A stretch of 64,000 nucleotides of DNA from an uncultured Candidatus Binatia bacterium (GCA_965215605.1 OZ244070.1:288001-352000), one strand, 5' to 3'. Shown: positions 25,435 through 43,593, counted from the stretch's first letter. The notes: generated by a model not told the origin, from the letters alone. Numbers and translations: made by a program.

Positions 25435-25569
25435 CTACGTCCCCGTATGGTGTAAAATACTATTTTACGGTTTTTTTAACTTAAATCTAGTTTTATTGAC
25501 GATAATATCGAAACGCTGTGACACTTGCAAACCCAACGAAAACAGAAGGTTGCACGTGGCAGGTCATTG

Positions 25570-25585
25570 CGGCACGGTCCGTGCT
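25570..25585 (+). promoter_or_regulatory. Sigma54 -24/-12 promoter of pspABC
   Basis: CGGCACGGTCCGTGCT fits GG-N10-GC; the AT-rich tract at about 25445-25510 likely holds PspF enhancer/IHF sites. Confidence 0.75.
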
Positions 25586-25634
25586 TTATCCATGCGTGTA
25601 ACCGTTTCCGCAAACCTGCCGAGGGAGGAGTCAA

Positions 25635-26303
25635 ATGGGGATCTTTACACGCCTGAGCGACATCGTCAGCTCGAACATCAGCTCCATGCTGGACAAGGCC
25701 GAGGATCCGGAAAAGCTCATCCGGTTGATGATCCAGGAGATGGAGGACACGCTGGTGGAGATCAAGGTCGCCTGCGCCCAGGCGATGGCGGCGCGCAAGA
25801 AGGTCGAGCGCGAACTGGATGAGGCGCGGCGGCGCGGCGACCAGTGGGAAGAGAAGGCGAAGCTCGCCGTCGCCAAGGGACGGGAGGACTTGGCGCGGGA
25901 GGCGCTGGTGGAGAAGCGGCGTTACCGTGAGCGAGCCGAGGTCCTGGAGGACGAGGCCGTCCAGTGCGCCGGCATCATCGAGCAGTACCAGTCGGACATG
26001 GTCCAATTGGAGGACAAGCTGGCGAAAGCGCGCGAGAACCAACGGATTCTGGTACAACGCCACATCCAGGCGCACAAGCGCAAGCGGGCGCAAACCGGGA
26101 TCCGGAAGATGACCAGCGCCGACACCATGCTGCGGTTCGAGCAGTTCGAGAACCGCATCGAGCGCATGGAAGCGGAGGCCGACCTAGTGAATTTCGCGCA
26201 CAAGCCGGACCTCGATGACGTGTTCGCCCGCCTGGAGCAGGACGAGGAGATCGAAGCCGAACTGCGCAGGCTCAAGGACGGCGCCGGGCGGTCCGAGACC
26301 TGA
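25635..26303 (+). CDS. pspA: Phage shock protein A
   Basis: MGIFTRLSDIVSSNI..LDKAEDPEKLIRLMIQEMEDTLVE; coiled coil. Confidence 0.96.
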   Translation: MGIFTRLSDIVSSNISSMLDKAEDPEKLIRLMIQEMEDTLVEIKVACAQAMAARKKVERELDEARRRGDQWEEKAKLAVAKGREDLAREALVEKRRYRERAEVLEDEAVQCAGIIEQYQSDMVQLEDKLAKARENQRILVQRHIQAHKRKRAQTGIRKMTSADTMLRFEQFENRIERMEAEADLVNFAHKPDLDDVFARLEQDEEIEAELRRLKDGAGRSET

Positions 26304-26362
26304 GGCGCGGCCGCGGTCCCAGCGCATGATCCCCACGCGCGGGGACCGTGCCGGAAGGCGTC

Positions 26363-26587
26363 ATGGAAGTCATGGGAATCATAATGGGAGTGCTCGGGAT
26401 CCTCTTGATCCTGGGAGCGATACTGATCGTCATGGTGGTGTGGGCCATCCGGGCGCTGCGCAGGAACGGAGCCGGCAGTGACGAGGCCCGCCTGATGCAG
26501 GAGATATACCAAGGCCTCAGCAAACTCGAGGACCGGGTGGAATCCCTGGAGACCATTCTACTCGACAGAAAGGAAAGACAGCCATGA
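26363..26587 (+). CDS. pspB: Phage shock protein B
   Basis: Single TM then LEDRVESLETILLD; lies between pspA and pspC. Confidence 0.85.
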   Translation: MEVMGIIMGVLGILLILGAILIVMVVWAIRALRRNGAGSDEARLMQEIYQGLSKLEDRVESLETILLDRKERQP

Positions 26588-26979
26588 CTCAAGGCAGTTC
26601 CCGCATCTATCGCTCGCGTCGCGGGGTCATCCTCGGCGTATGCCGCGGTCTTGCGGAACACCTGGACCTGTCGGTTTTCTGGGTCCGGGTGATCGCCGTG
26701 GTGATTCTGATCAGCACCGGATTCTGGCCGGTGGCCGGCCTCTACCTGCTGGCCGCCCTGATCCTGAAGCCGGAGCCCGTGCTGCCGTTGCAGACGGCGA
26801 GAGAACAGGACTTCTACAACAGCTACGCGCACTCGCGCGCCCACGCGTTGGACCGGCTGCGCCACACCTTCGGTCAACTCGACCGCCGTATCCGCCGCAT
26901 GGAGAGCGTGGTCACCAATCGCGAGTACGATTGGGAGCGGCGGCTGCGGACCGGAGAACGGAAACCCGAGCGGGATTGA
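26584..26979 (+). CDS. pspC: Phage shock protein C
   Basis: YRSRRGVILGVCRGLAEH PspC domain, RIRRMESVVT; ATGA overlap with pspB. Confidence 0.93.
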   Translation: MTQGSSRIYRSRRGVILGVCRGLAEHLDLSVFWVRVIAVVILISTGFWPVAGLYLLAALILKPEPVLPLQTAREQDFYNSYAHSRAHALDRLRHTFGQLDRRIRRMESVVTNREYDWERRLRTGERKPERD

Positions 26980-26996: not shown

Positions 26997-28139
26997 TCAA
27001 CTGCGGGTCACGCGGAACCGCGCCATGAAACGGCCGTCCACCCGGTCCTTCAGCAGCCAGCACCAGCGGGCGTGGGCGGCCCACCCCTTGTAGTCCATCA
27101 GCGCCTTGCCGTCGCCGGTGTTAAGGAGCCGCAGGAAATCATGCTGCGGCTCGTAGCGGGCCGGCGGCTCGCCGCGCACCAGCGCGTCGATGTTGCGCCA
27201 CAGGACCGGCCCCTGGCGGACGGCGTACACTCCCGCCTTGGGCGCGGCGGCGCCCGTCATGGTGCCGCTATCCCCCACTGCAAAGACGTTGTCCGAGCCG
27301 GTGGACTGGAGCGTGTCGCGGGTGAGCAGGAAGCCCCTGGGGTCTTTCGGCAGGGTGGTGTTCTCCAGCACCGGCGGCGGCGCCGCGCCCGCGGCCAGGA
27401 TGACCAAGTCCGCGGGAATGCGCCGTCCGTCGGCGCACGCCGTTTCCCGGGCGTCCACGCGGGTGACGCGCGCCCCCGCGACCACCTCCACGCCGCGTGC
27501 AGCCAGCAGCGCCTCCGCCTTGCGCAGGGCCCGGGGAGACAGTCCCCCGCCGATGTGCTTTCCCGCGTCAACGATGGTGACGGTGTGGCGTGCCGCTCCC
27601 GCAACCCGGTGCAGGTAGGCGGGCAGGCACAGGCCGATCTCGATGCCGCCCACGCCGCCGCCGATGACCAATATCCGCAGTTCCTCGCGACCCTGCCGCT
27701 CCAGTTCCTGCAACCGTTCGTAGAGGCGCATGAGAAACGTCTGCATGGGCTTGATGGGAACCCAGGCGTCGTCAGGCGCGTCGATGCCGGCGCGGTAGGG
27801 CACCGAGCCCGCGCCCACGGACAGGACGTCGAAGGGGACCGGCGCGTGTTGCTCGAAGCGGACGGTCCGGCTCTCCATGTCCACGCTCAGGGCGGGCTCC
27901 ACCACCAACTCGGCCCGGGCCGCGTGGACGAGGCTCCGCAGGTCGATCTCCAGCCTGCCGGGCGGGTACTGGCCCGACAGGGTGCCGGGCAGCATGCCGG
28001 AATAGGTGGCGGCGGCGAAGCTCGACACGCACACGAGGCGGGCGCCCGGAAGGGGTTCGCGCCGCCACCTGTCCAGGACATGGGCGTTGGTGTGGCCGAT
28101 GCCGAGGAGGACGATCCGCGCGGAGTCAGCCAAGGGCAC
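26997..28139 (-). CDS. FAD-dependent pyridine nucleotide oxidoreductase (like the N-terminal domain of SelD fusions)
   Basis: YSGMLPG, IGGGVGGIE, FAVGD, PKAGVYAVRQGP, KDRVDGRFM. Confidence 0.85.
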   Translation of the reverse strand: MPLADSARIVLLGIGHTNAHVLDRWRREPLPGARLVCVSSFAAATYSGMLPGTLSGQYPPGRLEIDLRSLVHAARAELVVEPALSVDMESRTVRFEQHAPVPFDVLSVGAGSVPYRAGIDAPDDAWVPIKPMQTFLMRLYERLQELERQGREELRILVIGGGVGGIEIGLCLPAYLHRVAGAARHTVTIVDAGKHIGGGLSPRALRKAEALLAARGVEVVAGARVTRVDARETACADGRRIPADLVILAAGAAPPPVLENTTLPKDPRGFLLTRDTLQSTGSDNVFAVGDSGTMTGAAAPKAGVYAVRQGPVLWRNIDALVRGEPPARYEPQHDFLRLLNTGDGKALMDYKGWAAHARWCWLLKDRVDGRFMARFRVTRS

Positions 28140-28737
28140 GGACGGACGGACGCGCGGTCATGCGTTCATACCACGCCTGCAGCAGCGGCAGGCTCGGGTC
28201 CGGCAGGATGCCCCACTGGACGTGGCGCATGATCCGGGGCAGGTGGGCCGCGTCGAGAAGCGAGAAGTCGCCGGCCATGTAGTGACGCCCTTCGAGCTCC
28301 TGCTCCAGCGGTTGCAGATCCTGGATGAACCGGGCCTTGGCCGCGGCCAGCGCGCCGGCGTCGCGCTCGTCCTCGGGCTTCATCATCTCCGTGCGGATGG
28401 CCTGGTGGCTGTCGTTGGTGTGGGTGACGCCATAGTCGATGAGGATGCGTATCCGGGCGCGCGCCGAGGCGTCGGCGGGCAGCAGCGGCGGATCCGGGTA
28501 CTTCTCTTCCAGGTACTCGTTGATGATACACGACTCGTAGAGCACCGTGTCGCCGTCCACCAGCACCGGCACCTTGCCGTGGGGATTCATGGCGAGGTAC
28601 TCCGGATCCTTCTGCTCCCGCTTGCGCAGGTCCACGGGAACCGTCTCGTAGGCCAGCCCCTTCTCTTCCAGCACCACCTTCACCCGCTGACAATTGGGCG
28701 AGGTCGCGAAATCGTACAGCTTGATGGCGTCGCTCAT
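28126..28737 (-). CDS. Glutathione S-transferase family protein
   Basis: SPNCQRV, MNPHGKVPVL, YESCIINEYL. Confidence 0.9.
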   Translation of the reverse strand: MSDAIKLYDFATSPNCQRVKVVLEEKGLAYETVPVDLRKREQKDPEYLAMNPHGKVPVLVDGDTVLYESCIINEYLEEKYPDPPLLPADASARARIRILIDYGVTHTNDSHQAIRTEMMKPEDERDAGALAAAKARFIQDLQPLEQELEGRHYMAGDFSLLDAAHLPRIMRHVQWGILPDPSLPLLQAWYERMTARPSVRALG

Positions 28738-28801
28738 TTTCGTGCTCCCTTTCGGCGGGACCTCGGCACGCGCCGTCATGGCGCGGGCAGGAGCCCAACC
28801 C

Positions 28802-30280
28802 CTATTGCCGGTGTCCCCGCACCACCCGGTCCAGCTCGTCTTTCCACTTGCCGGCCACGCTGTCGTGGGTCTCCTTGTCGATCTGGCTCACCGCCGGGAA
28901 CTGGTCCTTCCACTCGAAGGGCCGGGTGGCGTCGATGATGGCGCGGGAGTTGAGGCCCTTCTTGTCACGGGGAATGATGGGGTCCAGCGGCCCGCTCCAG
29001 GTGCGCCGGATGATGTCGATGGAATCCACGGGGTTGGAGCGGGTGCACATGGCCCACACCACCTCGTTCAGGTTGGTGATGTCCACGTCGTCGTCCACCA
29101 CCACCACGTAGCGGCCGAGGTAGGCGCCCGCGTGGCACTGGGCGGCCATGAGTGCCGCCTGCTTGGCATGGCCGGGATAGCGCTGGCGGATGGAGACGAC
29201 GATCATGAAGCGCTGGGCCGGCGGCGGCACGTACACGCCGACGACGTCCGGCACCCCGCCCCTCTCGACGCCGTTCCAGATCATCGCCGAACGCAGCATG
29301 GAACGGTACATGCCGTGGATGGTGGGCCGGAACGGCGGCGCGCTGGTGAGGATCGGATCGTCCCGGTGGTAGAGGGCCTTCAACTGCACCACCGGCTCGG
29401 CCCGGCGGGCGCTGGCGTAGTAGCCGGTCCACTCGCCGAAGGGGCCCTCGGGACGGGTGTCGCCCGGGATAATCTCCCCTTCCACCACGATCTCGGCCGC
29501 GGCTGGCACCCGGAGGCCGGTGAGCGGGGCCTCGATGACGCTCAGGGGCTGATCCACCAGGCCGCCGGCCCAGGCGTACTCGCTCACCCCCGGCGGCACC
29601 GCCTGGGACGCGGCCACGAACATCAGCGGGTGCTGGCCGAAGGCCATGGCCACCTGCACCGGCTTGCCCGCCTTGAGCGACTTCTCCATGTGCATGCGCC
29701 CGTGCTTGCCCGGGGAGATGTAGAGCGCGAGCTTGTCGGCCTCGTGGACCATGACCCGGTAGCAGCCGACGTTCTCCTCGCCGGTTTCCGGGTCCCGGGT
29801 CACCACCAGATGCGCGGTGCCGAGGTAGCGGCCGCCGTCGCCCGAGTGCCAGCGCGGAACCGGGATGTCGAGGATGTTGATGTCCTTGCCCGTATGGCGG
29901 TTCTCCATCACCGGGCCGGTGGGCACCACCCGGGGCTCGAGAGGCGTGAGATCGGCCAGCCGGGTACGCAAGCGGTCGATGACCTCGATGGTGCTGAGGT
30001 CCAGCGGCAGGCCGAGGGTCAGCGCCGTCCGCTCCATGGTCTCCATCATATTGGCGAGGACCCGCCCCTGGCCCTTGTGGCCAGCGACGTTCTCGAACAG
30101 AAGCGCCGGCGGCGCCGGCGACCGCTCGCAGACGATCTCGTTCAGGGCGCCCACCTCAAGGTCCCAGTGGGCGCCGGAGATGCGCTCCAACTGGCCGATT
30201 TCCTCCACCTGCCGGAGCCACACCCGAAGATCGTCAAAGGTCGTCGGCTCCTGGTCGTGCTTGCGTTCTGGTCTTGCCAT
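28802..30280 (-). CDS. UbiD family prFMN-dependent (de)carboxylase, paralog 1
   Basis: DLRVWL, DGGRYLGT, GCYRVM, EGPFGEWTGYY, VVVVDDDVD, IIDATRP. Confidence 0.92.
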   Translation of the reverse strand: MARPERKHDQEPTTFDDLRVWLRQVEEIGQLERISGAHWDLEVGALNEIVCERSPAPPALLFENVAGHKGQGRVLANMMETMERTALTLGLPLDLSTIEVIDRLRTRLADLTPLEPRVVPTGPVMENRHTGKDINILDIPVPRWHSGDGGRYLGTAHLVVTRDPETGEENVGCYRVMVHEADKLALYISPGKHGRMHMEKSLKAGKPVQVAMAFGQHPLMFVAASQAVPPGVSEYAWAGGLVDQPLSVIEAPLTGLRVPAAAEIVVEGEIIPGDTRPEGPFGEWTGYYASARRAEPVVQLKALYHRDDPILTSAPPFRPTIHGMYRSMLRSAMIWNGVERGGVPDVVGVYVPPPAQRFMIVVSIRQRYPGHAKQAALMAAQCHAGAYLGRYVVVVDDDVDITNLNEVVWAMCTRSNPVDSIDIIRRTWSGPLDPIIPRDKKGLNSRAIIDATRPFEWKDQFPAVSQIDKETHDSVAGKWKDELDRVVRGHRQ

Positions 30281-30300
30281 TTTCCACCTCTCGGTAGCCG

Positions 30301-31308
30301 CTATTCCGGTTCCTTCAACTCCCAGGTCTCCGGCGCGAACAACTCCTCGGGCGAGAGGTTGCGCTCGCAGATGCCCTGGGCCTCGCAGTATTCGATGAAG
30401 GTATTGAGGACGTCTCGGTTGGCGTCCAGGCCGTAGGGACACGGATCGCCTCCGAACACCGCGCTTTCTTCATCCAGCGCGTGCTGCCGCCACGCCATCA
30501 CCATGCTCGGGATGTTGGCGTACCAGTGCCGCGCCTGCCGCTTCGCCTGGCTGAACAGCTCGAAGAGGGCGGCCGCGACCTCGGGTTTTTGCTCCAGCAC
30601 CGATTTCCGGACGGCCAGCACGTGCATGATGGGAAAGATCCGGGTCTTCCTGAAGTACTCCGCCTCGACGTCCCGGTAGTCCCCGAACAACCGCTTCAGT
30701 CCCGGGTCGGCCAGGAGCGGCGGAAGCTGCGTCTCGGTGACGCCCAGCATGTCCAGGCGCCCTTCCCGGATCGCCGCCATGGCGCGGTCGGCGGCGCTCC
30801 CTTCTCCCTGCAGCACCTCGATGACGGCCCCGCCGGGCAGCTTCACCAAGGTCTCGGGACTGCCGTCGTCCCAGTGGTGCAGGGAAGCCGCGTGCCATTG
30901 GGAATTGGACGGCGTCACGCCGTACTCGTTCATCAGAGTGCCGCGGATCCACACCGCCGCGGTCTGGACCCAACGCAGGAAGCCGAGCCGCTTGCCCACG
31001 AGATCCTCCGGCGTGTCGATGCCGGCGTCCCGCCGGACGACGATGAAGCCGTGGCGGAACATACGGGACGGAAAGACCGGAATGCCGATGAAGTCGCTCT
31101 GGTTCCGCGACGTGTAGTAGATGAGCTCGGCCAGCGACATCTCCGAGACGTCGAACTCGCCCCGGTACATGGCGGCGAACATGCCCTGCACGCTCACCTG
31201 CTCTACGGCCTCCAGCTCGATTCCGGGAGCGCCGAGGACGCCCCGGAGAATGGCGTTGGTGCCGTCGTAGTTGCGGCAGGCAAGACGGAGTTGGCAGGGG
31301 TCGGCCAT
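30301..31308 (-). CDS. 4,5-dihydroxyphthalate decarboxylase (PhtD/OphC)-like protein, SBP fold
   Basis: FDVSEMSL, PVFPSRMFRH, QTAAVWIRG, IFPIMH, PYGLDANR; TGATG coupled to the upstream UbiD. Confidence 0.85.
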   Translation of the reverse strand: MADPCQLRLACRNYDGTNAILRGVLGAPGIELEAVEQVSVQGMFAAMYRGEFDVSEMSLAELIYYTSRNQSDFIGIPVFPSRMFRHGFIVVRRDAGIDTPEDLVGKRLGFLRWVQTAAVWIRGTLMNEYGVTPSNSQWHAASLHHWDDGSPETLVKLPGGAVIEVLQGEGSAADRAMAAIREGRLDMLGVTETQLPPLLADPGLKRLFGDYRDVEAEYFRKTRIFPIMHVLAVRKSVLEQKPEVAAALFELFSQAKRQARHWYANIPSMVMAWRQHALDEESAVFGGDPCPYGLDANRDVLNTFIEYCEAQGICERNLSPEELFAPETWELKEPE

Positions 31309-32912
31309 CAGCCCGGCTTCACCCGGCGCTTCGCCAGCTTGGCGCCGGTCTGGAGATAGTCGCTCTTCACCGCGAGCCGGGCCTCCTCCTCCCACTCGTC
31401 GTCCCATTGCCCCAGCGAATAGCCGTACCACGGCGCCTGGGGCGTCAGCGGCGGCAGCTCCAGCCGGTTCCACAGCTCCCGGGCGTGCTCCATGAACTCG
31501 CGCTTGGGCAGCGAAATCGGCGGAAAAGGCTCCTTCAGGATGGCGTTGATGAGCATGCCCGAGTCCGTGGCCGGCTGGTAGAACATCTCCTTGGCGGTGA
31601 CCAGGTGGCCCTCGTCCTCGAACGGCGGCGAGTGGCCCTTGACCCGCCCCGGCAGGATCAGCACGTCCTGGTGCGGCTTGGAGCGGTAACAGATGGCCCA
31701 CCACACGGCGTCGAGATTATGGGGATCGATGTCGTCGTCCACGGCGATGGCGATCTTGCCGACGCCGTGCTGGTAGTTGGCGATGCTGTTCAAGGCGCGC
31801 CAGACGTCCCCTTCCGCGGGCTTGCTCATCTGCACGATGACGAGCTTGCGCAGGTTGGTGAGAGGCTCGTGCATGGCCACCTGGGTGACGCTCTTGATGC
31901 CGACGGTGTCGCGCAGGTAGCGGCGCAGCAACGGCTCGTAGCCCACCTTCTTGATGACGCTGGACTCGCTGGGAGTCACTTGGCTGATGAACGAGCACAG
32001 CAACGGCTTGCGTTTCATGGTGATGGCGGTCACCTCCATGAACGGCGACACCGTGCGCGGGTGCAGGTAGCCGTGGGACTCGCCGAAGGGGCCCTCGGGT
32101 TCCACGAAATCCGTGCTGATGAGCCCCTCGATGACGATCTCGGCGTTGGCCGGCACCTCGATGTCCACGGTCTTGCAGCGGACCAGTTGGACGGGCTCTC
32201 CCGCCAGGCCGCCGGCGATGCCCATCTCGTCCACTCCCGGCGGCACCTTCTGCACCGTGCCGTAGGAGACCACCGGCGGCGCGCCCACCACCAGCGCGGC
32301 GTGCAACGGCCGGCCCTGCTCCCGGCACTTGTCCCAGTGCGGGAAGATGTGCTGGTGCATGCCCGCGTACATACCCACGCGCTTCTGGCTCTTGATCTGC
32401 CCGCGGTAATTGCCCTGGTTGCGGACACCCGTTTCCGGGTCCTTGGTGAACCAGTGGGAACAGGTGGTGTAAGGCGCGTTGTCGAACCCCGGCGTGGAGA
32501 TGGGAACGGGAAGCTGCAGTAGCCCGCCGCCCTCGATGTCCAGGTCCGCCCCTTGCAGGACCACGTCGTGAACCGGTCCGGACTCGACGATGGCGGGTTC
32601 GATGGGGTTCGCCAGCGCATGCGCCCAGAGGTCCGGGATCTCGTCCACCGGTCGCTGCAAGCCGACCGAGTACACTTGCGGCGAGGCCGCCAGCGCGGCT
32701 ACCGCCACCGGCATGTCGTAGGTCCGGCCGTGGCTGTCCGTCACGTTCTCGAACAGGAAGGCCTTGCGTTCCGCCTCCGGCAAGCCGCCGCGGAATTGCC
32801 AGCGCACCAGCGGATGCATCTCCGTGTCCTTGTTGATGGGGTGGCGGATGCGCAGCAGGAGGCCCGCGGACTCCAGGTTGGACAGGTGCTCTTGAAGGTC
32901 GGGATAGGACAT
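31308..32912 (-). CDS. UbiD family prFMN-dependent (de)carboxylase, paralog 2
   Basis: AFLFENV, GNYRGQ, EIVIEG, EGPFGESHGY, AVDDDIDP. Confidence 0.92.
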   Translation of the reverse strand: MSYPDLQEHLSNLESAGLLLRIRHPINKDTEMHPLVRWQFRGGLPEAERKAFLFENVTDSHGRTYDMPVAVAALAASPQVYSVGLQRPVDEIPDLWAHALANPIEPAIVESGPVHDVVLQGADLDIEGGGLLQLPVPISTPGFDNAPYTTCSHWFTKDPETGVRNQGNYRGQIKSQKRVGMYAGMHQHIFPHWDKCREQGRPLHAALVVGAPPVVSYGTVQKVPPGVDEMGIAGGLAGEPVQLVRCKTVDIEVPANAEIVIEGLISTDFVEPEGPFGESHGYLHPRTVSPFMEVTAITMKRKPLLCSFISQVTPSESSVIKKVGYEPLLRRYLRDTVGIKSVTQVAMHEPLTNLRKLVIVQMSKPAEGDVWRALNSIANYQHGVGKIAIAVDDDIDPHNLDAVWWAICYRSKPHQDVLILPGRVKGHSPPFEDEGHLVTAKEMFYQPATDSGMLINAILKEPFPPISLPKREFMEHARELWNRLELPPLTPQAPWYGYSLGQWDDEWEEEARLAVKSDYLQTGAKLAKRRVKPG

Positions 32913-32942
32913 GTCGGGCTCGCGTGGTCCGTGGATTCGCGC

Positions 32943-33968
32943 CTACCGGCGCCCGCCGTTGCCGCCGGGACGCTGCTCTTCACGGTAGAGCTCCAGCGCT
33001 TCCAGCACCGGCCGGTCGTTCATGGAGAAGACCACCGCCTCCTCGTCGAAAGGGTTCTCGTGGCGGTGCCATTGCCAGTTGGGGATCATGAACGAGTCGC
33101 CCTTCTCCCACTCCAGGAAGCCCTCGCCAACCGCCGTGCGGCCGCGGCCGCGGAACACGTGGTAAAGCGCGGTGCTGGTGTGGCGGTGGGTGCCCGTGGC
33201 CCAGCCCGGTTTCAGCAGTTGCGCCTCACAGGACAGGGTCGCCATGGTATAGCCGCCGGTGACCGGATTGGTGTAGCGGACCAGGTGGCCGTCGAAGGGA
33301 TCGGCCTCGACGTCGGCGATGTTGTGGAGCGAGGCGTCGGTATCCTCCCAGCGGTAGCAGAACGGCAGGCCCCGGCCGGGGGATTCCGCGCGGGCCGGCG
33401 GGCGGGCGAAGCCGTAGCGCATCTGCGCGTCGCCGTCGGCGCGGGTGACACCCTGGGTGTCCTTGTCGTAGTTCTCGAAGAACAGCACGTTCAGCGCGTT
33501 GATGAGCGGGCCGTCGAGGCCGTCGAGCCAGACGATGGGCTCGCTCGATTCGTTGTGATGCTCGTGCCAGGTCCAGTTGGGGGTGAGGATCAGGTCGCCC
33601 TCGTGCATGGGGAAACGCTCCCCCTCCACCAGCGTGAAGGCGCCGCTCCCCTTCACCACGAAACGGATGGCGGCCATGTTGTGCCGGTGCGGCCGGGCGA
33701 TCTCGCCGGGGTTCACCACCGAGAAGGTGAAGAGCAACGTCCGGGAGGTGGCGCGGGTGGGGTTCTGCGGGTTCACCAGCCGTATGGCCCGGCGCTCCGC
33801 CAACTCGAGGCCGACGGATTCCCTGGCGTCCATGAGGCACGGGTGGACTTCCCGCCACTTCCACAGGTAGGGCGCCTCGTCCTGGTGTTCCGGCGTGCGG
33901 GTGTTCCAGAAGCCCGAGAGGTCGTGCTCGGCCAGCGAGTCATTGAGGTCCTTGATCTCCATCTTCAT
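32943..33968 (-). CDS. Gentisate 1,2-dioxygenase-like bicupin, paralog 1
   Basis: AERRAIRLVNP, PHRHNMAAIRF, TPNWTWHEH, LDGLDGP, YTNPVTGG, HRHTS. Confidence 0.9.
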   Translation of the reverse strand: MKMEIKDLNDSLAEHDLSGFWNTRTPEHQDEAPYLWKWREVHPCLMDARESVGLELAERRAIRLVNPQNPTRATSRTLLFTFSVVNPGEIARPHRHNMAAIRFVVKGSGAFTLVEGERFPMHEGDLILTPNWTWHEHHNESSEPIVWLDGLDGPLINALNVLFFENYDKDTQGVTRADGDAQMRYGFARPPARAESPGRGLPFCYRWEDTDASLHNIADVEADPFDGHLVRYTNPVTGGYTMATLSCEAQLLKPGWATGTHRHTSTALYHVFRGRGRTAVGEGFLEWEKGDSFMIPNWQWHRHENPFDEEAVVFSMNDRPVLEALELYREEQRPGGNGGRR

Positions 33969-34011
33969 GAGAGGTCCCTCGGGATGCTTGCAGGGGCCGG
34001 GGCGCCGGTAC

Positions 34012-34719
34012 CTATGGCAGCCGCGCCATGGCCGCGGCCATGCCGCCGAAATAGGCCCGGTGAAGGTCCATGGACTCCCGGGCGGTGCTCAGCACGCCTT
34101 CCTCGGCGCCTTCGGGCACGAACCGCTCGAAGATGTCCAGGAACATTTCGGAGTGCTTCTCGTCCGCGGCGCGATGGGCGGTGAAGTTGGGCATCTGGTC
34201 GTCGGTGAACTTGAGGTCCCGGCTCCAGCGTTCGTACAGCCGGCCGCAGTTGCCCCCGCCCAGGTCCCCCAGCAGGCGGTCGTCGTTGGTCCACTCCGCG
34301 ATGGTGGAGGCGGCCAGCGCCTCCTGCCACGGCTTGGTCCGAGCAATCCACCACCAGCCGTAGACGGCCGCCCGGGTGGCGGGCAGCGGCTCGGCGTCCA
34401 GCACTTCCTCCTCGCTGAGTCCTACTTCCCTGCCCTGCCGGAAGATCAGGTCCAGGTGGCCGCGGTCCGAATAGTCGTCCTCCACCAGTTCCTCGTACTC
34501 GTGGGACATGATGCGCTGCTTCACCAGGTGCACGGGACAGTTGGCGGCCACCTGGGGCCAGTAGTGCCGCCGCTGGCGGACGTAGATGCCGAGCTGCGAC
34601 AGGTAGAGCCGCGCGCGCTCCAGGCTGACGGGGGTTTCGTAGAACTGTCCCAACTCCGGAGACCGGAAATAGTCCCTGACGATCTCACCAAGCTCGTTGC
34701 GCCATTCCTTCGGGTTCAT
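34012..34719 (-). CDS. Heme-oxygenase-like diiron (PqqC/TenA/CADD-fold) redox enzyme
   Basis: HEYEE..RGH, AEW and FTAHRAADEKH match the E/H/E/H/D/H diiron ligand pattern. Confidence 0.8.
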   Translation of the reverse strand: MNPKEWRNELGEIVRDYFRSPELGQFYETPVSLERARLYLSQLGIYVRQRRHYWPQVAANCPVHLVKQRIMSHEYEELVEDDYSDRGHLDLIFRQGREVGLSEEEVLDAEPLPATRAAVYGWWWIARTKPWQEALAASTIAEWTNDDRLLGDLGGGNCGRLYERWSRDLKFTDDQMPNFTAHRAADEKHSEMFLDIFERFVPEGAEEGVLSTARESMDLHRAYFGGMAAAMARLP

Positions 34720-34750
34720 GACTCTTCTCCTTACGTGCTGGTTCAGGAAA

Positions 34751-35644
34751 TCAGTCCCGCGCCACGGCCAGCGCGTTCTTGAGCCGCGTGGCCTGCTCGC
34801 TGTTGAGGTCCTTGGTGGGCCACCTCGGGAAATCCACCACCGGGAGATCCCGCAGCTTGAGAGACTCCCGCAGGACCGAGCGGCCCGCGGCCCGCTGGAG
34901 GTCGCTGACGACCGCGGTGAATTCGATCACCCGCCGCTGCAGTTCAACCGCCTCCTCCAGCTTGCCCGTCGTGGTCGCGACCCACAGATTCACCAGCAGC
35001 TCGGGGATGGCCACCGTCAGCGGATGAATGGAGCCGGCGAGACCCCACAACACCCCCGGCATGATCAGCGTGGCGGAGCCGGAGAACACGGCGCAACTCG
35101 CGGGCAGCGCCCGCACGAAGGCGAGCTGCTGCTCCAGGGGAATGAACGACATCTTGATGCCGCAGGCCTCCGGGACTTCCGACACCAGCTTCGCGGTCCA
35201 CGGCGCGGTCATGCGATAACCGCTGTTCACCGCGTTGTTGTAGATGAACATCGGATACTGAATGGCCTCGTAGACCTTGACGTAGTGCTGCAGAACCTCG
35301 TCGTCGAGGTGGTCGAAGTAATACGGCGGCACCACGCCGACCACGTCCGCGCCCTTGTCCCTGGCGTCCCTGGCCAGATCGATGGTGGTGGGGGTGTCGG
35401 CCGTGCCCGCGTGAATCACCACCGGGATGCGGCCCGCCACCCGGTCGATGACGATCTTCGCGGTGCGCTTGCGCTCATCCGGCGTCATCGCCGGACCCTG
35501 GCCGAAGGTGCCGAGCACGAACAGGCCGTGCACCCCGGCTTCCACGTAGAAGTCCGTCAGCGCCAGCACCGCGTCCTCGTCCACCGCGCCGGTGCCGGTA
35601 AACGGCGTCGGCAACGGAATGTACATACCCTTCAAGCGTTCCAT
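34751..35644 (-). CDS. DapA/DHDPS-family class I aldolase
   Basis: PLPTPF, GTFGQG, VVPPYY, IYNN, GIKMS Schiff-base Lys. Confidence 0.88.
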   Translation of the reverse strand: MERLKGMYIPLPTPFTGTGAVDEDAVLALTDFYVEAGVHGLFVLGTFGQGPAMTPDERKRTAKIVIDRVAGRIPVVIHAGTADTPTTIDLARDARDKGADVVGVVPPYYFDHLDDEVLQHYVKVYEAIQYPMFIYNNAVNSGYRMTAPWTAKLVSEVPEACGIKMSFIPLEQQLAFVRALPASCAVFSGSATLIMPGVLWGLAGSIHPLTVAIPELLVNLWVATTTGKLEEAVELQRRVIEFTAVVSDLQRAAGRSVLRESLKLRDLPVVDFPRWPTKDLNSEQATRLKNALAVARD

Positions 35645-35727
35645 AAGCTCGCTCCGTAGTATTGGTTTCAGTTTTCGGACCCACCACGGGTCATAGGGCA
35701 ACGGCGGATGGCTGTCAACGGACGCGG

Positions 35728-36399
35728 CTAGCGTTGCGCGGTGACCTCGATTTCGATGAGCTTGCCCTGGGCGGAATAGCCGTCCACGAACGACCACTCG
35801 ACGCGCCCCGGACGGGGCGCCACGGCGCGTTCGAACGCGTCCTTCAGCGCGGCCGGGTCTTCCGCCCGCTGGAGGAAGAACGACACCAGCACCGCCTGCT
35901 CCCAGGATACTCCGGCGTGTTCCAGGGACTCGCCGATGAGGCCGCAAACCTCCGTCACCTGCTCGGCAAGGTCGCCCGATGTGGAGGTGACGCCCGACAG
36001 GAAAACCAGGCCTTCGAGACCGAGATAGCGTAGCGGCACGATGGGCGGATCGTACTCCACCAGCTTCTTGCTGCCGCCGGAGCGCATGGCGATGAAGTCC
36101 AGCGAGACGGAGGCGCCGGAGTCGAGGTGACCGGGCGCGATGTAGCTCGAACTGGAGGAGCGCGCGCTCCCGCGCATGCGTTTGGAGCGGGCCTGACTGC
36201 CGAGGTTCCGGCTCTCCCGGTCCCGAGCCCACAGCCGCGTCCGCACCGTGTCGGCCAGGGACAGGCCCAGTGCGCCGATGCGTTCCTCGATGCGGTCGAG
36301 GATCCCGTCCATGCCCTGGTCGGCGGCAACGCCGTCGGCGCCCTCGCACGAGACCGCGACGAATTCGCGGCCGAGCCAGTCAAAGGATTTCATGCGCAT
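35728..36399 (-). CDS. Tandem-domain RidA (YjgF/YER057c) family protein
   Basis: Two RidA-like halves: GLSLADTVRTRLW, then LVFLSG..AGVSWEQAV..LIEIEVTA. Confidence 0.72.
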   Translation of the reverse strand: MRMKSFDWLGREFVAVSCEGADGVAADQGMDGILDRIEERIGALGLSLADTVRTRLWARDRESRNLGSQARSKRMRGSARSSSSSYIAPGHLDSGASVSLDFIAMRSGGSKKLVEYDPPIVPLRYLGLEGLVFLSGVTSTSGDLAEQVTEVCGLIGESLEHAGVSWEQAVLVSFFLQRAEDPAALKDAFERAVAPRPGRVEWSFVDGYSAQGKLIEIEVTAQR

Positions 36400-37304
36400 G
36401 GGTTGGATCCCTCGTCATGCGGATCAACCGGACAAGACGTGGACGTCTCATCGCAACACACCGGAGCGTCGAAGAACGCCAGCGTCCGGATCTCGATGCT
36501 CTCCCGGCCCGGCGCGCCGGCTGGGCTCGTGGGGTCGTCGAAGGAGGAATGGGCGGTAAAGCGCGCCCTTCCGTCCCGGGCGGAGTCGAACGTCTTGAAG
36601 ACGATGGCCTCGTTCCGTGTCATGGCCGGGAAATAGAACCAGCGGTGGTCCGGCCCGTACTTGATCTGGTAGGTCTCGCCGATACGGCCGGGGTAGCTGC
36701 GCTGGGACGCGATCAGCTCCTCCGCTCGCAGCGAGCGGGCATCCGCGATGGCCAGCGGGTTGGTGCGCACCGGGTTGCGAGTGGGCTGCCACACCTGGAT
36801 GATGGCGAACCGGCCCTGGAGCAGCCGTTCCGCCTCGTCCGCCGGCAGGATGTCCCGGACCCGCTTGGGCCCGGACCAGTCGGTGTAGTCGTTGTGCACC
36901 GAGCGGTTGGGCTCCCGGACCTTCCGCTCCGCCCGGATGCCTTCGTCCTGGGCTCGGAGCGTGTGATCGAAGATGACCACCCGGGAAGCGCCGCTCTCGC
37001 GCTTCACCAGCGCCTCCACCTCGGGGTAGTAGACGGACCGGAGCTCGTCCTCGTCGTAGAAGTCCTTGACGCGGGTGTCGTGCCGAACGAACACGAAACC
37101 TTCGCGCTCCAGCGAGAACTCGCTCGCCATCGGACGGCCGTTGTGGATGGCGGCGCGGCGGGCCTCGTGCCTGCCGGTGCGCAACACCGGCGTGCTGTTG
37201 AGCACGGCGGTATGCGTCACCGGTTTCTCGCCGGTGTCCAACGCATAGTTCAGAACGGCTTCCACGGCATCCGGTGCGGTCTCGACCGACTCGAGTCCAC
37301 TCAT
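36390..37304 (-). CDS. CmcJ/NvfI/AsaB-family putative Fe(II)/2-oxoglutarate oxygenase
   Basis: FSLEREGF, YYPE, FDHTLR, VHNDYT (HxD), PLAIADARS, AHSSFDDP, RESIEIR. Confidence 0.85.
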   Translation of the reverse strand: MSGLESVETAPDAVEAVLNYALDTGEKPVTHTAVLNSTPVLRTGRHEARRAAIHNGRPMASEFSLEREGFVFVRHDTRVKDFYDEDELRSVYYPEVEALVKRESGASRVVIFDHTLRAQDEGIRAERKVREPNRSVHNDYTDWSGPKRVRDILPADEAERLLQGRFAIIQVWQPTRNPVRTNPLAIADARSLRAEELIASQRSYPGRIGETYQIKYGPDHRWFYFPAMTRNEAIVFKTFDSARDGRARFTAHSSFDDPTSPAGAPGRESIEIRTLAFFDAPVCCDETSTSCPVDPHDEGSNPCA

Positions 37305-37426
37305 GTGCATACCTCCCGCGAATGACTTCTACTCTCACCGCGGATGGTATCAGCCCAAGGCCTGTTCAACAATAACGAACGGCGGATCGCGGCACGGACC
37401 GACGCCTTCCTGGCCGGCGCTGCGCA

Positions 37427-37456
37427 TTGACACGACCGCGGGCCATTGGCTAACGT
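37427..37456 (+). promoter_or_regulatory. Putative sigma70 promoter of the plus-strand catabolic operon
   Basis: TTGACA-18 nt-TAACGT in the divergent intergenic region. Confidence 0.45.
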
Positions 37457-37513: not shown

Positions 37514-38668
37514 ATGGGACGTGACTACAACGTCATATCGGCCGACGGCCATATCGACCTGAACCCCGACATCTGGCGCGGCCGGGTGGCAACATCCATG
37601 CGCGAGCGCGCGCCCAAACGGGTCAAAATGCCCAACGGGTCGGATGCGGTGGTGGTGGACGGCGGCAAGCCCAACACCATCGGGGTGACCCGGAGCGTGC
37701 GGGTGAACAAGGAGGACATGGCCAGGCAGGTGCCCACCTTCGAAACCTGCGCGGGCACCGGCCCGCCGGAACAGCGGCTGGAGGAACAGGCCAGAGACGG
37801 CATCGACGCGGAGGTGGTGTTCTCGCAGATCTCCTTCGTGCTGGAGCAGGCCAGGGACCGCGAACTCTATTGCGAACTGGTGCGGGCGTACAACGAGTTC
37901 CTGGCCGAGGAGTACATGGCGCCGGCCCCGGACCGCATCATCCCCATGGGCGTCATCCCCGTCAGCGGCGTCGACGACGCGGTGCGGGAGATGGAACACT
38001 GCGCCCGCCTGGGCCTCAAGGGCGTCAAGCTCGACAGGTTCCCGAGCGGCCGGGGCTACCCCACGGCCGAGGACGACCGTTTCTGGGCCGCCGCCCTGGA
38101 CCTCGGCGTCGCCCTCACCAACCACAACACCGGCAACATGGGCTCGGGCAAGGACGAGGCCGCGTTCACGTACCAGCGCAAACCCGGGCCCGACGTGCAC
38201 GTCAAGGAGCCCATGAACTACTTCTTCCGCTTCACCAACCCCGCCATGGTGGGCGCCGTGCAGATGGCCTTCGCCGGCGTGTGGGACCGCTTTCCGACGC
38301 TCAAGATGTACTGGGCCGAGACCATGATCGGCTGGTTCGAGTACGGCCTGTGGCAGATCGACGACCACTACCAGCGCTACATGCCCATGATCCACGAGTT
38401 CTGGGGGCTCCACTACCTGGAGAAGAAGCCTAGCGAGTACCTGACGGAGCACAACTACTGGGGCTTCCTGCACGACCCCATCGGCATCAAGCGGCGGGAG
38501 TGCATCGGCTACGACAAGCTCATGTGGGGAACGGACTTCGCCCACGCGGCCAGCGAGTACCCCAACTCAATCCCGATAATGGAGCAGGACTTCGAGGGAG
38601 TGCCCGCCAACGAGCGGCGGGCCATGCTGGTGGACAACTGTGTGAAGTATTTCGGGCTGGATGCATGA
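37514..38668 (+). CDS. Amidohydrolase_2 family metal-dependent hydrolase/decarboxylase
   Basis: ISADGH, DGIDAEV, RAYNEFLAE, DRFPTLK, MWGTDFAH. Confidence 0.9.
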   Translation: MGRDYNVISADGHIDLNPDIWRGRVATSMRERAPKRVKMPNGSDAVVVDGGKPNTIGVTRSVRVNKEDMARQVPTFETCAGTGPPEQRLEEQARDGIDAEVVFSQISFVLEQARDRELYCELVRAYNEFLAEEYMAPAPDRIIPMGVIPVSGVDDAVREMEHCARLGLKGVKLDRFPSGRGYPTAEDDRFWAAALDLGVALTNHNTGNMGSGKDEAAFTYQRKPGPDVHVKEPMNYFFRFTNPAMVGAVQMAFAGVWDRFPTLKMYWAETMIGWFEYGLWQIDDHYQRYMPMIHEFWGLHYLEKKPSEYLTEHNYWGFLHDPIGIKRRECIGYDKLMWGTDFAHAASEYPNSIPIMEQDFEGVPANERRAMLVDNCVKYFGLDA

Positions 38669-38696
38669 ACGTGGCGCCCCGCACCGAGGACTTGTC

Positions 38697-39731
38697 GTGA
38701 GCGATGTCGGCACCACCCACGAGGACCTTGAGCAGTACCTCGCCACCCACCACCTGGTAGGGGCCGGGCTCCGGCGTGAAGGCATGGCGGCGCCACGCAC
38801 CGGGCCCGCCGGCGCCCACTGGCGCTGGGAAGGAATCTACAAGGGACTCATGCGGTCCGGCGAGATCGTCACCGTGGGCCCCGGCGGCATGACCGGCATG
38901 CGCTCGGTCACCGGCATCGAGGCGCGCCGTTTCCCCATCTGGATGAACGTGCAGATCCTCATGCCCGGCGAGCGCACCCAGGGACACCGGAACATGCGGA
39001 ACGAGACCCGCCTGGTGTGCCAGGCGCCGAAGGAAGCCGCGTTCGTGTGCGAGTTCGAAGCGTTTCCCATGGAGCGGGGCGACGTCGTCATCAGCCCGTC
39101 CTGGACCTTCCACGACCACTGGAACCAGGGCACGGTCCCGGCCCTGTACGTGGACGGCTATGACAACGGCTACAACGGCGGAGTGAACCTGAACGAGCGG
39201 CTGCCCGACGATCTCCCCTACCAGGAGATCCGCAAGCCCGACGGCTACGGCGGCCGCACCCGCGGCCTCGCGCGCCCCACGGCCGCCGGCCGGCCCTTCC
39301 CGCTGCCGCCCATGCGCTATCCTTGGGCCGAGACTCTGGCGGGACTCCGGGCACTCCAGGAGGCCGGCGAGGAGGACCCTTGCGAGGGCGTCCATCTGAT
39401 GCTGGCGAGTCCAGTGGACGGCGGCCCCACCCTGCCCACCCTTGCCTGGCATGCGCAACTCCTGCGCGCCGGGCAGGCCACCCTGAGCCACCGGCACAAC
39501 AGCAACACTTTCTACCACGCGTTCGAGGGCGCCGGCGCCGTGGTCATCGAGGGGGAGCGGCTCGAGTGGCGTCAGGGAGACATCTTCGCGGTGCCGGCCT
39601 GGGCGTGGCACCATCACGAGAACGGTCACGAAAGCGACTCCATCCTGTTCTCCATCGACGACTGGCCGGCGCAGACCAAGCTCGGCTTCTACATCAAGGA
39701 GACCGCGGCGGCAGACCCCCAGGACGGGTAG
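38697..39731 (+). CDS. Gentisate 1,2-dioxygenase-like bicupin, paralog 2 (HRN variant)
   Basis: QILMPGERTQGHRN, SPSWTFHDH, PVDGGPTLPT, HRHNS; GTG start after GAGGA. Confidence 0.85.
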   Translation: MSDVGTTHEDLEQYLATHHLVGAGLRREGMAAPRTGPAGAHWRWEGIYKGLMRSGEIVTVGPGGMTGMRSVTGIEARRFPIWMNVQILMPGERTQGHRNMRNETRLVCQAPKEAAFVCEFEAFPMERGDVVISPSWTFHDHWNQGTVPALYVDGYDNGYNGGVNLNERLPDDLPYQEIRKPDGYGGRTRGLARPTAAGRPFPLPPMRYPWAETLAGLRALQEAGEEDPCEGVHLMLASPVDGGPTLPTLAWHAQLLRAGQATLSHRHNSNTFYHAFEGAGAVVIEGERLEWRQGDIFAVPAWAWHHHENGHESDSILFSIDDWPAQTKLGFYIKETAAADPQDG

Positions 39732-39764
39732 CAGGCCCGCGCCATACCGAAGGGAGACGAACCC

Positions 39765-40721: not shown

Positions 40722-40743
40722 GCGACGGGAACAGGAGACGATC

Positions 40744-41802: not shown

Positions 41803-41820
41803 CGCGAACTGCAACGCGGA

Positions 41821-41960
41821 GAGCCGGGCGGGCGCGTCCCTGAAATCTGTAGACGGCGGGCGGACGTGGCAACGATCCACGACGCCACCCGGGCGAGGCA
41901 GTTCGTCACGAACCCGGCACCCACCGTCTCCGGATTTCAGGGACGCCCCCCGCCCGGCTC
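41821..41960. repeat. 140-bp long inverted-repeat (REP/MITE-like) element
   Basis: GAGCCGGGCGGGCGCGTCCCTGAAATCTGTAGACGGCGGGCG pairs imperfectly with CACCCACCGTCTCCGGATTTCAGGGACGCCCCCCGCCCGGCTC. Confidence 0.85.
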
Positions 41961-42031
41961 GGGAACAAGCGGTACGAGACGAAGTCAACCCATTCGGCCC
42001 CGGACGCCCCCCGCCTGGCTCGGGAACAAGC
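41941..42031. repeat. Two 30-bp direct repeats with a 61-bp period
   Basis: GGACGCCCCCCGCC(C/T)GGCTCGGGAACAAGC at 41941 and 42002, separated by 31 unique bp. Confidence 0.9.
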
Positions 42032-43589: not shown

Positions 43590-43593
43590 GGTC

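Follow-up and report, generated by a model that had tools for sequence, protein, structure and literature searches.

A conserved, modular gene cluster of Candidatus Binatia built around a predicted heme-oxygenase-like dimetal oxygenase and its possible role in aromatic-acid catabolism

The minus strand of a 64,000-nt stretch of DNA from an uncultured Candidatus Binatia bacterium (GCA_965215605.1 OZ244070.1:288001-352000; the whole stretch is called the window here, and all positions are counted along it) carries ten co-oriented genes at 26997–37304. From the 5′ to the 3′ end of this operon, they encode a CmcJ/NvfI-family oxygenase (CmcJ), a RidA-like protein, a DapA-like protein, a predicted heme-oxygenase-like (HO-like) dimetal oxygenase (HDO), a gentisate-1,2-dioxygenase-like bicupin (Cupin1), the UbiD-family protein UbiD2, a PhtD-like decarboxylase, a second UbiD-family protein, UbiD1, a glutathione S-transferase (GST), and a flavoprotein (Table 1). 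The genes form a real, conserved, and modular cluster, in which a core composed of the HDO, the bicupin, and UbiD1, often joined by the PhtD-like protein, is accompanied by accessory genes restricted to a single clade. The cluster may represent a new form of aromatic-acid catabolism, built around an HDO that is found here in an unprecedented context.

Gene calling combined a third-position G+C (GC3) frame filter with Pfam and NCBIfam scans of the window, the G+C content of which is 67% and the raw open reading frame (ORF) lists of which are full of spurious frames. Both the presence of ten tightly spaced or overlapping genes and their family assignments, as put forward in the original prediction, were borne out, the former by the agreement of GC3 with the family searches and the latter by Pfam, NCBIfam, and intact catalytic motifs. 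The spacings between successive genes, going from CmcJ to the flavoprotein, are −10, +83, +31, +43, +30, −1, +20, +64, and −14 nt, with the negative values corresponding to the overlap of the RidA-like gene with the CmcJ stop (10 nt), of the UbiD2 stop with the start of the PhtD-like gene (1 nt), and of the flavoprotein gene with the GST stop (14 nt). Position 37304, which had been given as the end of the operon, is also the better start of CmcJ, being preceded at 7 nt by the ribosome-binding site GGGAGG and matched by the alignment of the relatives, with 37310 as the alternative. The DapA-like gene starts with the ATG at 35644. At its 5′ end the operon is bounded by a divergent intergenic region of ~200 nt, its 3′ end faces a convergent pspF/pspA/pspC group, and no regulator gene was seen adjoining it.

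Relatives of the HDO number 330 at E ≤ 1e-3, and the best 120 of them, 64–93% identical, come nearly all from metagenomes or metagenome-assembled genomes (MAGs). A search with an HDO profile built from 23 sequences found 102 relatives in one-genome-per-species contigs; 80 of these 102 loci, labelled almost wholly as Candidatus Binatia or with older 'delta-proteobacterial' names, were examined by comparing the window's 28 proteins with them by tblastn. In 13 of the 19 closest loci (HDO 87–97% identical) the full set of ten genes is found with order and strand unchanged, which argues against a chance assembly; the random pile-up of paralogs that had been considered as an alternative in the original prediction is thus refuted by the comparison of gene order. 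Among the other close loci, L008 is without UbiD2 and L019 without the PhtD-like gene, L011 has no match to the flavoprotein, and L007 ends at a contig edge. A compact, six-gene form (CmcJ, DapA-like, HDO, bicupin, UbiD1, and flavoprotein) is found in L016 and L017. An apparent fusion of UbiD1 with the flavoprotein in these two loci was rejected as an artefact of the ORF filter, as tblastn gives separate, full-length genes. The flanks of the operon vary, with psp genes following it in 6 of the 13 full-operon relatives.

The distant loci, in which the HDO is 65–72% identical, keep only the core, arranged in the order HDO, bicupin, PhtD-like, UbiD1. In the 68 loci with at least 3.7 kb of sequence downstream of the HDO, the bicupin is present in 56, UbiD1 in 53, the PhtD-like gene in 45, and all three in 43; the HDO, the bicupin, and UbiD1 occur together in 53 of these 68 evaluable loci. 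The bicupin shows the tightest linkage to the HDO, being found in 60 of the 76 loci in which at least 1.1 kb of downstream sequence is available. The HDOs of the full operons group in a single, 100/100-supported clade comprising 20 of the 79 rows of the HDO tree, and the accessories, namely CmcJ with the RidA-like protein, UbiD2, the GST, and the flavoprotein, are confined to one Binatia clade. The operon is therefore not the single, indivisible ten-gene system that had been envisaged; it consists instead of a widely conserved core and one-clade accessories, and contains a junction that is an insertion hot spot with a promoter-like motif of its own. Similarly, two UbiD proteins are present, as predicted, but UbiD2 is an accessory of the full-operon clade only (15 loci).

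Some identical or nearly identical HDOs (branch lengths 0–0.015) bear differing labels, such as Verrucomicrobiia for L036 and Binatia for L044, or Limnocylindrales (Chloroflexota) for L035 and Binatia for L042. The discrepancy probably reflects mis-binning of contigs or inconsistent labelling and not gene transfer, and a wide phylum range of the cassette was rejected on the grounds that mis-binning or label history is likelier. In several of the distant loci, a single-domain response regulator of ~130 residues lies 200–500 nt upstream of the core (L022 9385–9777, L036 9120–9512, L046 9304–9780, and L078 9328–9720), and an unassigned protein of ~175 residues is encoded ~600 nt downstream.

By its predicted fold and ligand set, the HDO is a putative HO-like dimetal oxygenase, for which binding of two metal ions and activation of O2 are predicted. 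The AlphaFold2 (AF2) model, with a predicted local distance difference test (pLDDT) score of 94.5, is all-helical and adopts the seven-helix heme-oxygenase-like fold. The Foldseek matches of this model include CtCADD (template modelling (TM) scores 0.78/0.85) and PqqC (0.81/0.75), as well as BesC, UndA, and FlcD. In the alignment with the 4-aminobenzoate synthase 9pj4, residues E80/D81, H88, E142, H182, D186, and H189 stand opposite E, H, E, H, D, and H, and these predicted ligands are invariant in 81 of 81 sequences (here and below, invariance was counted over every homologue recovered). A primary ligand set of three His and three carboxylates is the motif of the HDO family (PMC13108848, partial text). 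Conservation of the whole protein is also strong, with a mean column identity of 81% in the 23-sequence profile.

The self-sacrificing 4-aminobenzoate (pABA) synthases use residues of their own as synthons, Tyr27 and Lys152 in CtCADD (PMC13108848, partial text). An invariant Tyr27 is present in the HDO, where the N-terminal part of the alignment with 9pj4 stops short of it; the Lys-bearing stretch falls opposite the invariant G-G-G-N-C of the HDO. Asn or Cys occupies the position corresponding to the lysine region, the alignment being uncertain in this part. Identification of the HDO as PqqC, a name that many of its relatives carry at JGI, was rejected, since the score on TIGR02111 is only 18.3 bits against a cut-off of 240 and PqqC is without the metal ligands that the HDO keeps; the PqqC alignment covers only residues 56–139 and places a Gly opposite H88. 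An HDO–cupin fusion of 512 residues (P0121) was likewise set aside as Rosetta-stone evidence, as it is likely a frameshifted gene call across two adjacent genes: similarity is lost past HDO residue 204, and garbled stretches are found where the His ligands of the cupin are expected. A tblastn search of PLSDB found no plasmid relatives of the HDO, and searches of the ESM Atlas returned only the same uncharacterised families.

The bicupin scores 291.8 bits on the 5-aminosalicylate dioxygenase model NF049978 (cut-off 650) and 284.1 bits on the gentisate model TIGR02272 (cut-off 442.1). Its similarity to the gentisate dioxygenase of E. coli (2d40, E = 3.6e-77) extends to the HRH and WHxH motifs of the His ligands, which align, and none of the 61 sequences departs from H94, H96, H135, and H137. 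Along its full length (residues 6–330), the PhtD-like protein is similar to a solved 4,5-dihydroxyphthalate decarboxylase, 9jp7, and it shares 38% identity with the PhtD annotated on the Novosphingobium KA1 plasmid; its Pfam matches, to Phosphonate-bd and NMT1, are weak.

The two UbiD proteins are 30% identical to each other. Each has all three UbiD Pfam domains (N-terminal, Rift-related, and C-terminal) and contains the motifs N-x-G-x-Y-R and E-G-P-F-G-E, of which N170, R175, E278, and E283 are invariant in UbiD1 (55 of 55 sequences) and N165, R170, E273, and E278 in UbiD2 (16 of 16). We presume, from the spacing of the motifs, that these positions map onto the numbering of Fdc1. The nearest solved relatives of UbiD2, which falls just under the TIGR00148 cut-off that UbiD1 passes (227.2 bits; Table 1), are 6h6x (E = 1.4e-48), which we take to be the furandicarboxylate decarboxylase HmfF, and 6h6v. 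UbiD1 is nearest to 7pda (E = 3.6e-103; 349 bits vs 190 for the next structure); this entry is the structure of the phenazine-1-carboxylate decarboxylase PhdA from Mycobacterium fortuitum (PMC10850782, partial text). The E(D)RE motif, comprising E277, R173, and E282 in Fdc1, is essential in UbiD enzymes (PMC8379154, partial text).

CmcJ matches the 2-oxoglutarate (2OG) dioxygenase 7eus (E = 5e-34), with the H-x-D...H motif aligned, and NvfI (E = 2e-26), and its residues H139, D141, and H254 are kept in all 18 sequences. The invariance of the catalytic residues in the HDO, the bicupin, both UbiDs, and CmcJ suggests active enzymes. No papers on PDB entries 9JP7 and 7EUS were found. For the RidA-like gene, the original prediction spoke of a tandem RidA. 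The gene is a single ORF for one protein of 223 residues, and only the C-terminal half of it (residues 129–221) passes the Ribonuc_L-PSP model of Pfam (29.6–32.7 bits vs 27.3); the N-terminal half, with no Pfam match even at E ≤ 1 and a weak match to the YjgF-family structure 3i7t (E = 0.0034), is RidA-like only weakly. In the AF2 model, which is of moderate quality (pLDDT 68), the β–α pattern occurs twice, and Foldseek matches it to chorismatases, hydrolases of the Toblerone fold, and single-domain RidA proteins. The label 'tandem RidA-like' is therefore reasonable, if weakly supported. The two-half architecture is kept in 16 loci.

The DapA-like protein reaches 114.5 bits on TIGR00674 (dapA; cut-off 206.15) and 122.8 bits on HpaI-NOT-DapA (cut-off 396.7), and its best solved relatives are DHDPS and YagE (~1e-29 to 1e-26), which places it, on similarity, in the DHDPS superfamily and distinguishes it from DapA itself. 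For the GST, the best NCBIfam model is maiA (TIGR01262; 89.9 bits vs 171.05), with FzlA and SspA close behind. On these scores, no specific enzyme name is given to the bicupin, UbiD2, the GST, or the DapA-like protein, and each is assigned to its superfamily only.

Three promoter-like motifs were recognized from conserved blocks among the relatives (P1–P3, Table 1). A consensus promoter scan listed no promoters in the region, so that P1–P3 are based on conservation only, and a consensus terminator scan gave 5 terminator-like sites, compared to 4.3 expected, a result that supports neither way. A near-palindrome, GGCCATTGGCT, is located at 37436–37452 between the −35 and −10 elements of P3, is conserved in relatives, and may be an operator. 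In each of the 16 loci that carry both, CmcJ overlaps the RidA-like gene. The gap between the RidA-like and DapA-like genes, in which P2 is located, ranges among relatives from 80 nt to ~7 kb, identifying this junction as an insertion hot spot. In the closest relative (L001 3800–9000) it holds an insert of ~5.3 kb that contains a 2OG-FeII_Oxy_5 protein, a TctC-like binding protein, and ORFs without a Pfam family. The operon is thus probably made up of two transcription units, CmcJ with the RidA-like gene and the DapA-like gene through the flavoprotein gene, with read-through between them possible.

These features could also be accounted for by two or more independent funnel modules lying side by side in a paralog-rich island, namely CmcJ with the RidA-like protein, the genes from DapA-like to the flavoprotein, and possibly a UbiD2/PhtD-like pair. 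The variable gap with the inserted genes of L001, the P2 motif within it in the window and six other loci, and the constant overlap of CmcJ with the RidA-like gene would all agree with such an arrangement, as would the loss of UbiD2 in L008, of the PhtD-like gene in L019, and of four genes together in L016 and L017, and the wealth of bicupin, PhtD-like, DapA-like, and amidohydrolase-fold paralogs in the window. However, the order of the ten genes is kept in 13 of the 19 close loci in spite of their differing flanks, only 6 of 13 having psp genes, and in L016 and L017 CmcJ continues without a gap into the block of the DapA-like gene and the HDO (spacings of −8 and −6 nt). We consider fully independent modules rather unlikely.

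Our preferred reading, which is a tentative one, is that the cluster would provide a Rieske-free catabolic route for hydroxylated benzene di- or tricarboxylates of the phthalate type, which would be decarboxylated to a gentisate-like intermediate before cleavage of the ring. Each proposed step is inferred from family membership; the substrate class, the order of the steps, the reaction of the HDO, and co-transcription are inferences as well. The acid would be taken up, possibly through the neighbouring TctABC-type transporter, and oxygenated without a Rieske dioxygenase, the core candidate for this step being the HDO, which the CmcJ-type Fe/2OG enzyme may assist in the full-operon clade. Surplus carboxyl groups would be lost non-oxidatively through the action of the PhtD-like protein and of one or two UbiDs dependent on prenylated flavin mononucleotide (prFMN), leaving a gentisate-like intermediate, that is, an o-hydroxy-carboxylate with a hydroxyl or amino group in the para position, and its ring would be cleaved by the bicupin. 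In the extended operon, the GST may isomerise the maleyl-type product, the DapA-like protein may free pyruvate from a 2-oxo-acid intermediate, and the RidA-like protein may act on an enamine, imine, or enol intermediate. The flavoprotein would either give electrons to the dimetal center or keep hydroquinone intermediates reduced.

Several observations favor a phthalate-type substrate. The PhtD-like protein of the operon resembles 9jp7 and the annotated KA1 PhtD, and the window encodes a second PhtD-like paralog. Among plasmid proteins, UbiD1 is closest to one (45% identity, E = 1e-113) encoded in a UbiD/UbiX/CoA-transferase cluster of Aromatoleum aromaticum EbN1 plasmid 2 (L081 8914–10428). 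To our knowledge, all substrates of the gentisate-dioxygenase family retain a carboxylate; with a UbiD acting before cleavage, the starting acid would therefore carry at least two carboxyl groups. No CoA ligase or transferase was found among the operon proteins in the Pfam and NCBIfam scans, which makes free acids the likely substrates. In L025, a gene of the fumarylacetoacetate-hydrolase (FAH) family and a DapA-like gene directly precede the core, and an esterase and a second bicupin are also found around it; these surroundings fit a gentisate-type lower pathway and likewise favor the phthalate-type substrate. An adjoining tripartite tricarboxylate transporter (TTT) points the same way, as TTT systems are among the known phthalate transporters (PMC13040137, partial text).

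A number of points weigh against this route. Its support is drawn from sequence, and every relative is a MAG. Cupin1, the GST, the DapA-like protein, and UbiD2 all score under the curated cut-offs of the specific NCBIfam models, and the nearest solved relatives of both UbiDs, PhdA (7pda) and presumably HmfF (6h6x), are decarboxylases of heteroaromatic acids, which would fit an amino- or N-heteroaromatic substrate equally well. The window's operon has no fumarylpyruvate hydrolase, and a tblastn search with two UbiX proteins from L081 and L083 (threshold E ≤ 1e-3) found no UbiX, either in the window or, out to 10 kb from the HDO, in any of the 80 loci; UbiX genes are often unlinked. In many loci the four-gene cores sit among housekeeping genes, with no lower-pathway enzymes near them, and 14 of the 79 rows of the HDO tree, 65–68% identical and falling into at least three groups, are loci without the bicupin, a UbiD, or the other enzymes, in which the HDO lies beside housekeeping-type genes; the HDO can thus work without these partners. 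The hot spot and P2 at the RidA-like/DapA-like junction imply that CmcJ and the RidA-like protein may serve a different process. Finally, the validated HDOs, about a dozen, are all biosynthetic and act mainly on amino or fatty acids (PMC13108848, partial text).

The substrate could, in turn, be an amino- or N-heteroaromatic carboxylate, as proposed in the original prediction; aminosalicylate- or aminophthalate-type acids, as well as phenazine, quinoline, and pyridine carboxylates, would then be decarboxylated by the UbiDs, an intermediate resembling 5-aminosalicylate would be cleaved by the bicupin, and an enamine would be deaminated by the RidA-like protein. UbiD1 is by far the closest to PhdA and UbiD2 to 6h6x (presumably HmfF), a RidA-like protein is encoded in the operon, and the HDO is structurally nearest to the aminobenzoate-forming CADD proteins. 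For the bicupin, too, the 5-aminosalicylate model gives a slightly better score than the gentisate model, but this difference is small and both scores are under the cut-offs. CmcJ and the RidA-like protein, however, form a separable module that is missing from 43 core-only loci, and the RidA-like gene is missing from the compact operons of L016 and L017. Scans of the operon show no amidase, deaminase, molybdenum hydroxylase, or nitrogen-handling gene, and the EbN1 context, like the presence of two PhtD-like paralogs, is indicative of carbocyclic dicarboxylates. The phenazine cluster of Mycobacterium, moreover, is built on Rieske and extradiol dioxygenases (PMC4626857, partial text). Such a substrate is possible and no better supported than a carbocyclic, phthalate-type one; as an account of the whole cluster, we regard this alternative as somewhat improbable.

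A biosynthetic role, in which the HDO, Fe/2OG tailoring, and UbiD (de)carboxylation would yield a small aromatic metabolite or a cofactor-like compound, appears quite doubtful to us. It would agree with the solved relatives of CmcJ, which include NvfI, and with the family itself, which is known from cephamycin and novofumigatonin biosynthesis; with the structural proximity of the HDO to the pABA synthase CADD and its strong conservation; with the position of the core among housekeeping genes in many loci; and with the biosynthetic role of every validated HDO (PMC13108848, partial text). On the other hand, no nonribosomal peptide synthetase, polyketide synthase, terpene synthase, or ligase is present in the operon or in the scanned core loci, and the gene most tightly linked to the HDO encodes a bicupin of the ring-cleaving type with intact His ligands. 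A GST, an FAH-family gene (in L025), and uptake-type transporters accompany the core, and Asn or Cys takes the place of the CADD-type lysine region, subject to the uncertainty of that alignment. Whatever probability is not covered by these four readings falls to everything else.

Returning to the Rieske-free catabolic route, a bolder form of it, which we consider unlikely as a whole, would make the HDO–bicupin–UbiD(–PhtD-like) cassette an aerobic route for benzene polycarboxylates that needs neither a Rieske oxygenase nor CoA activation and is common in uncultured soil Binatia. The HDO would hydroxylate or oxidatively decarboxylate the arene, and the PhtD-like and prFMN-dependent decarboxylases would trim the product to gentisate. 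If true, this would be the first catabolic, arene-directed HDO, with phthalate-type acids as its substrates, among them those from plasticisers, lignin or humic matter, or pyrogenic carbon.

For the cluster in general, the linkage of a strongly conserved HDO to a ring-cleaving dioxygenase and decarboxylases would extend the HDO family into aromatic catabolism and would give new substrates to two UbiDs and a PhtD-like enzyme, which are of interest as catalysts of reversible (de)carboxylation. The cluster also gives a clue to the possible use of carboxyl-rich aromatic matter by Binatia, which are abundant in soil and uncultured. With only four genes, the core could be expressed and screened directly.

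Table 1. Genes of the operon, promoter-like motifs, and the divergent companion cluster in the window
Feature	Position	Strand	Basis
CmcJ, CmcJ/NvfI-family Fe(II)/2-oxoglutarate-type oxygenase	36390–37304	−	NF041278, 307.9 bits (cut-off 80)
RidA-like protein, 223 residues, single ORF	35728–36399	−	Pfam Ribonuc_L-PSP, C-terminal half only
DapA-like class I aldolase-family (DHDPS-family) protein	34751–35644	−	Pfam DHDPS, E = 1.3e-42
HDO, predicted HO-like dimetal oxygenase	34012–34719	−	Pfam Haem_oxygenas_2 and TENA_THI-4
Cupin1, gentisate-1,2-dioxygenase-like bicupin	32943–33968	−	two Cupin_2 domains
UbiD2, UbiD-family decarboxylase, accessory	31308–32912	−	all three UbiD Pfam domains
PhtD-like decarboxylase, periplasmic-binding-protein fold	30301–31308	−	9jp7 match, E = 5e-45
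UbiD1, UbiD-family decarboxylase, core	28802–30280	−	TIGR00148, 308.9 bits (cut-off 244.85)
GST, weakly MaiA-like	28126–28737	−	Pfam GST_N and GST_C
Flavoprotein, FAD/NAD(P)H pyridine-nucleotide-disulfide oxidoreductase	26997–28139	−	TIGR03169, 337.7 bits (cut-off 310); Pyr_redox_2
P1, upstream of CmcJ, TTGTTG-17-TACCAT, TG at extended −10	37344–37372	−	conserved blocks, window and 11 loci
P2, in the 83-nt RidA-like/DapA-like gap, TTGACA-17-TATGAC	35690–35718	−	window and 6 of 19 loci (L002, L007, L008, L011, L014, L015)
P3, for the divergent plus-strand cluster, TTGACA-18-TAACGT	37427–37456	+	conserved block among relatives
Divergent companion cluster: Amh1, bicupin, second PhtD-like paralog (PBP2), bicupin, TctA, TctB, weak TctC-like	37514–45226	+	Pfam, NCBIfam

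The companion cluster on the plus strand begins with Amh1, a protein of the amidohydrolase fold, the best solved relatives of which are the diiron monooxygenase PtmU3 (E = 4.4e-25) and DitZ (E = 9.5e-20). In 15 of the 19 close loci, CmcJ is likewise preceded by an Amh1 homologue on the other strand. PBP2, located between two bicupins and next to TctA/TctB, is 28% identical to the PhtD-like protein of the operon (E = 1.5e-35). A dimetal oxygenase candidate, a gentisate-dioxygenase-like bicupin, and a PhtD-like decarboxylase are thus combined in each of two adjacent clusters. Further downstream are two more amidohydrolase-fold paralogs, two DapA-like paralogs, a transporter of the major facilitator superfamily (MFS), and a fourth bicupin, which brings the paralogs in the window to four gentisate-dioxygenase-like bicupins, two PhtD-like proteins, three DapA-like proteins, and three of the amidohydrolase fold. 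The last three, all Amidohydro_2 paralogs, lie at 37514–38668 (Amh1), 45251–46423, and ~46600–47562. Members of Pfam Amidohydro_2 are usually decarboxylases or hydratases; from the likeness of the first paralog to PtmU3 and DitZ, the three may instead be oxygenases.

On the other side, the phage-shock group that is convergent with the end of the operon occupies 24406–26979 and comprises pspF (TIGR02974, 453.9 bits), pspA, and pspC. Just past the aromatic-acid island, the minus strand at 54159–59668 carries a luciferase-like monooxygenase and a pair of hydantoinase/oxoprolinase A and B genes. From 60000 to 64000 the G+C content falls from ~0.67 to 0.59–0.61, and this region includes an rve-type integrase of an insertion sequence (IS) element (60621–61697, minus strand) and, from 63032, a gene with an FGE-sulfatase domain. 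It may be a boundary of acquired DNA.

No described pathway with this combination of families was found in the literature searched, which left out most subscription journals, in keeping with the original prediction that no such pathway had been characterized. Each of the nearest described systems has between one and three families in common with the operon, and none of them shares the combination. Among HDOs, CADD and NePabS share with the protein described here the HO-like fold and the ligands of three His and three carboxylates; identity to CADD is, however, only 15–17%, and the lysine region of the pABA synthases is not evidently conserved, as far as the uncertain alignment allows. In SznF, an HDO is fused to a cupin, which shows that an HDO and a cupin can act successively; the words 'aromatic' and 'degradation' are absent from the main text of the 2026 review of the HDO family (PMC13108848, partial text). 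Here, the bicupin is a separate protein of the gentisate-dioxygenase type and not a domain of the SznF type, and the context of the window, unlike those of CADD/NePabS and SznF, looks catabolic rather than biosynthetic.

With the gentisate pathway, which consists of gentisate 1,2-dioxygenase, a glutathione-dependent maleylpyruvate isomerase, and fumarylpyruvate hydrolase, the operon has in common a homologous bicupin with its His ligands and a GST, to which the FAH-family gene of L025 may be added. The bicupin (284 vs 442) and the GST (89.9 vs 171) nevertheless fall under the equivalog cut-offs, the hydrolase is missing, and in place of a feeding flavin hydroxylase there are the HDO, the UbiDs, and the PhtD-like protein. 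The aerobic o-phthalate pathway (Rieske phthalate dioxygenase, dihydrodiol dehydrogenase, and PhtD) is represented by a full-length PhtD homologue, its second paralog, and a TTT-type transporter, whereas neither a Rieske dioxygenase nor a dihydrodiol dehydrogenase is found among the window ORFs scanned, and cleavage would be of the gentisate type rather than of the protocatechuate type. A 2026 review of phthalate degradation describes only Rieske-based aerobic and CoA-dependent anaerobic routes, and the term gentisate has 0 occurrences in the text available (PMC13040137, partial text).

The plasmid relative of UbiD1 in EbN1 is a third, uncharacterised UbiD, encoded between an ABC transporter and a porin in a cluster that also contains two UbiX/UbiD pairs and CoA transferases, and that we take to be the anaerobic phthalate cluster (phthaloyl-CoA decarboxylase). 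The UbiX, the CoA transferases, and the ABC transporter of that cluster have no counterparts in the window, which in turn has the HDO, the bicupin, and the PhtD-like gene that the plasmid cluster is without. PhdA of the PhdA/PhdB system of M. fortuitum is the nearest solved structure to UbiD1, in which the E(D)RE residues are present, but no UbiX is adjacent here. The phenazine locus of mycobacteria differs from the window in relying on Rieske and extradiol dioxygenases (PMC4626857, partial text), and mapping of the operon onto that pathway was rejected, as only UbiD is in common. In the 1-hydroxy-2-naphthoate branch of phenanthrene degradation, a bicupin dioxygenase is followed by a hydratase-aldolase of the DapA family and then by phthalate and PhtD. 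This branch, while including no HDO, UbiD, GST, or RidA-like protein, has three families in common with the operon, namely a bicupin of the gentisate-dioxygenase type, a pyruvate-releasing enzyme of the DHDPS family, and a decarboxylase of the PhtD type.

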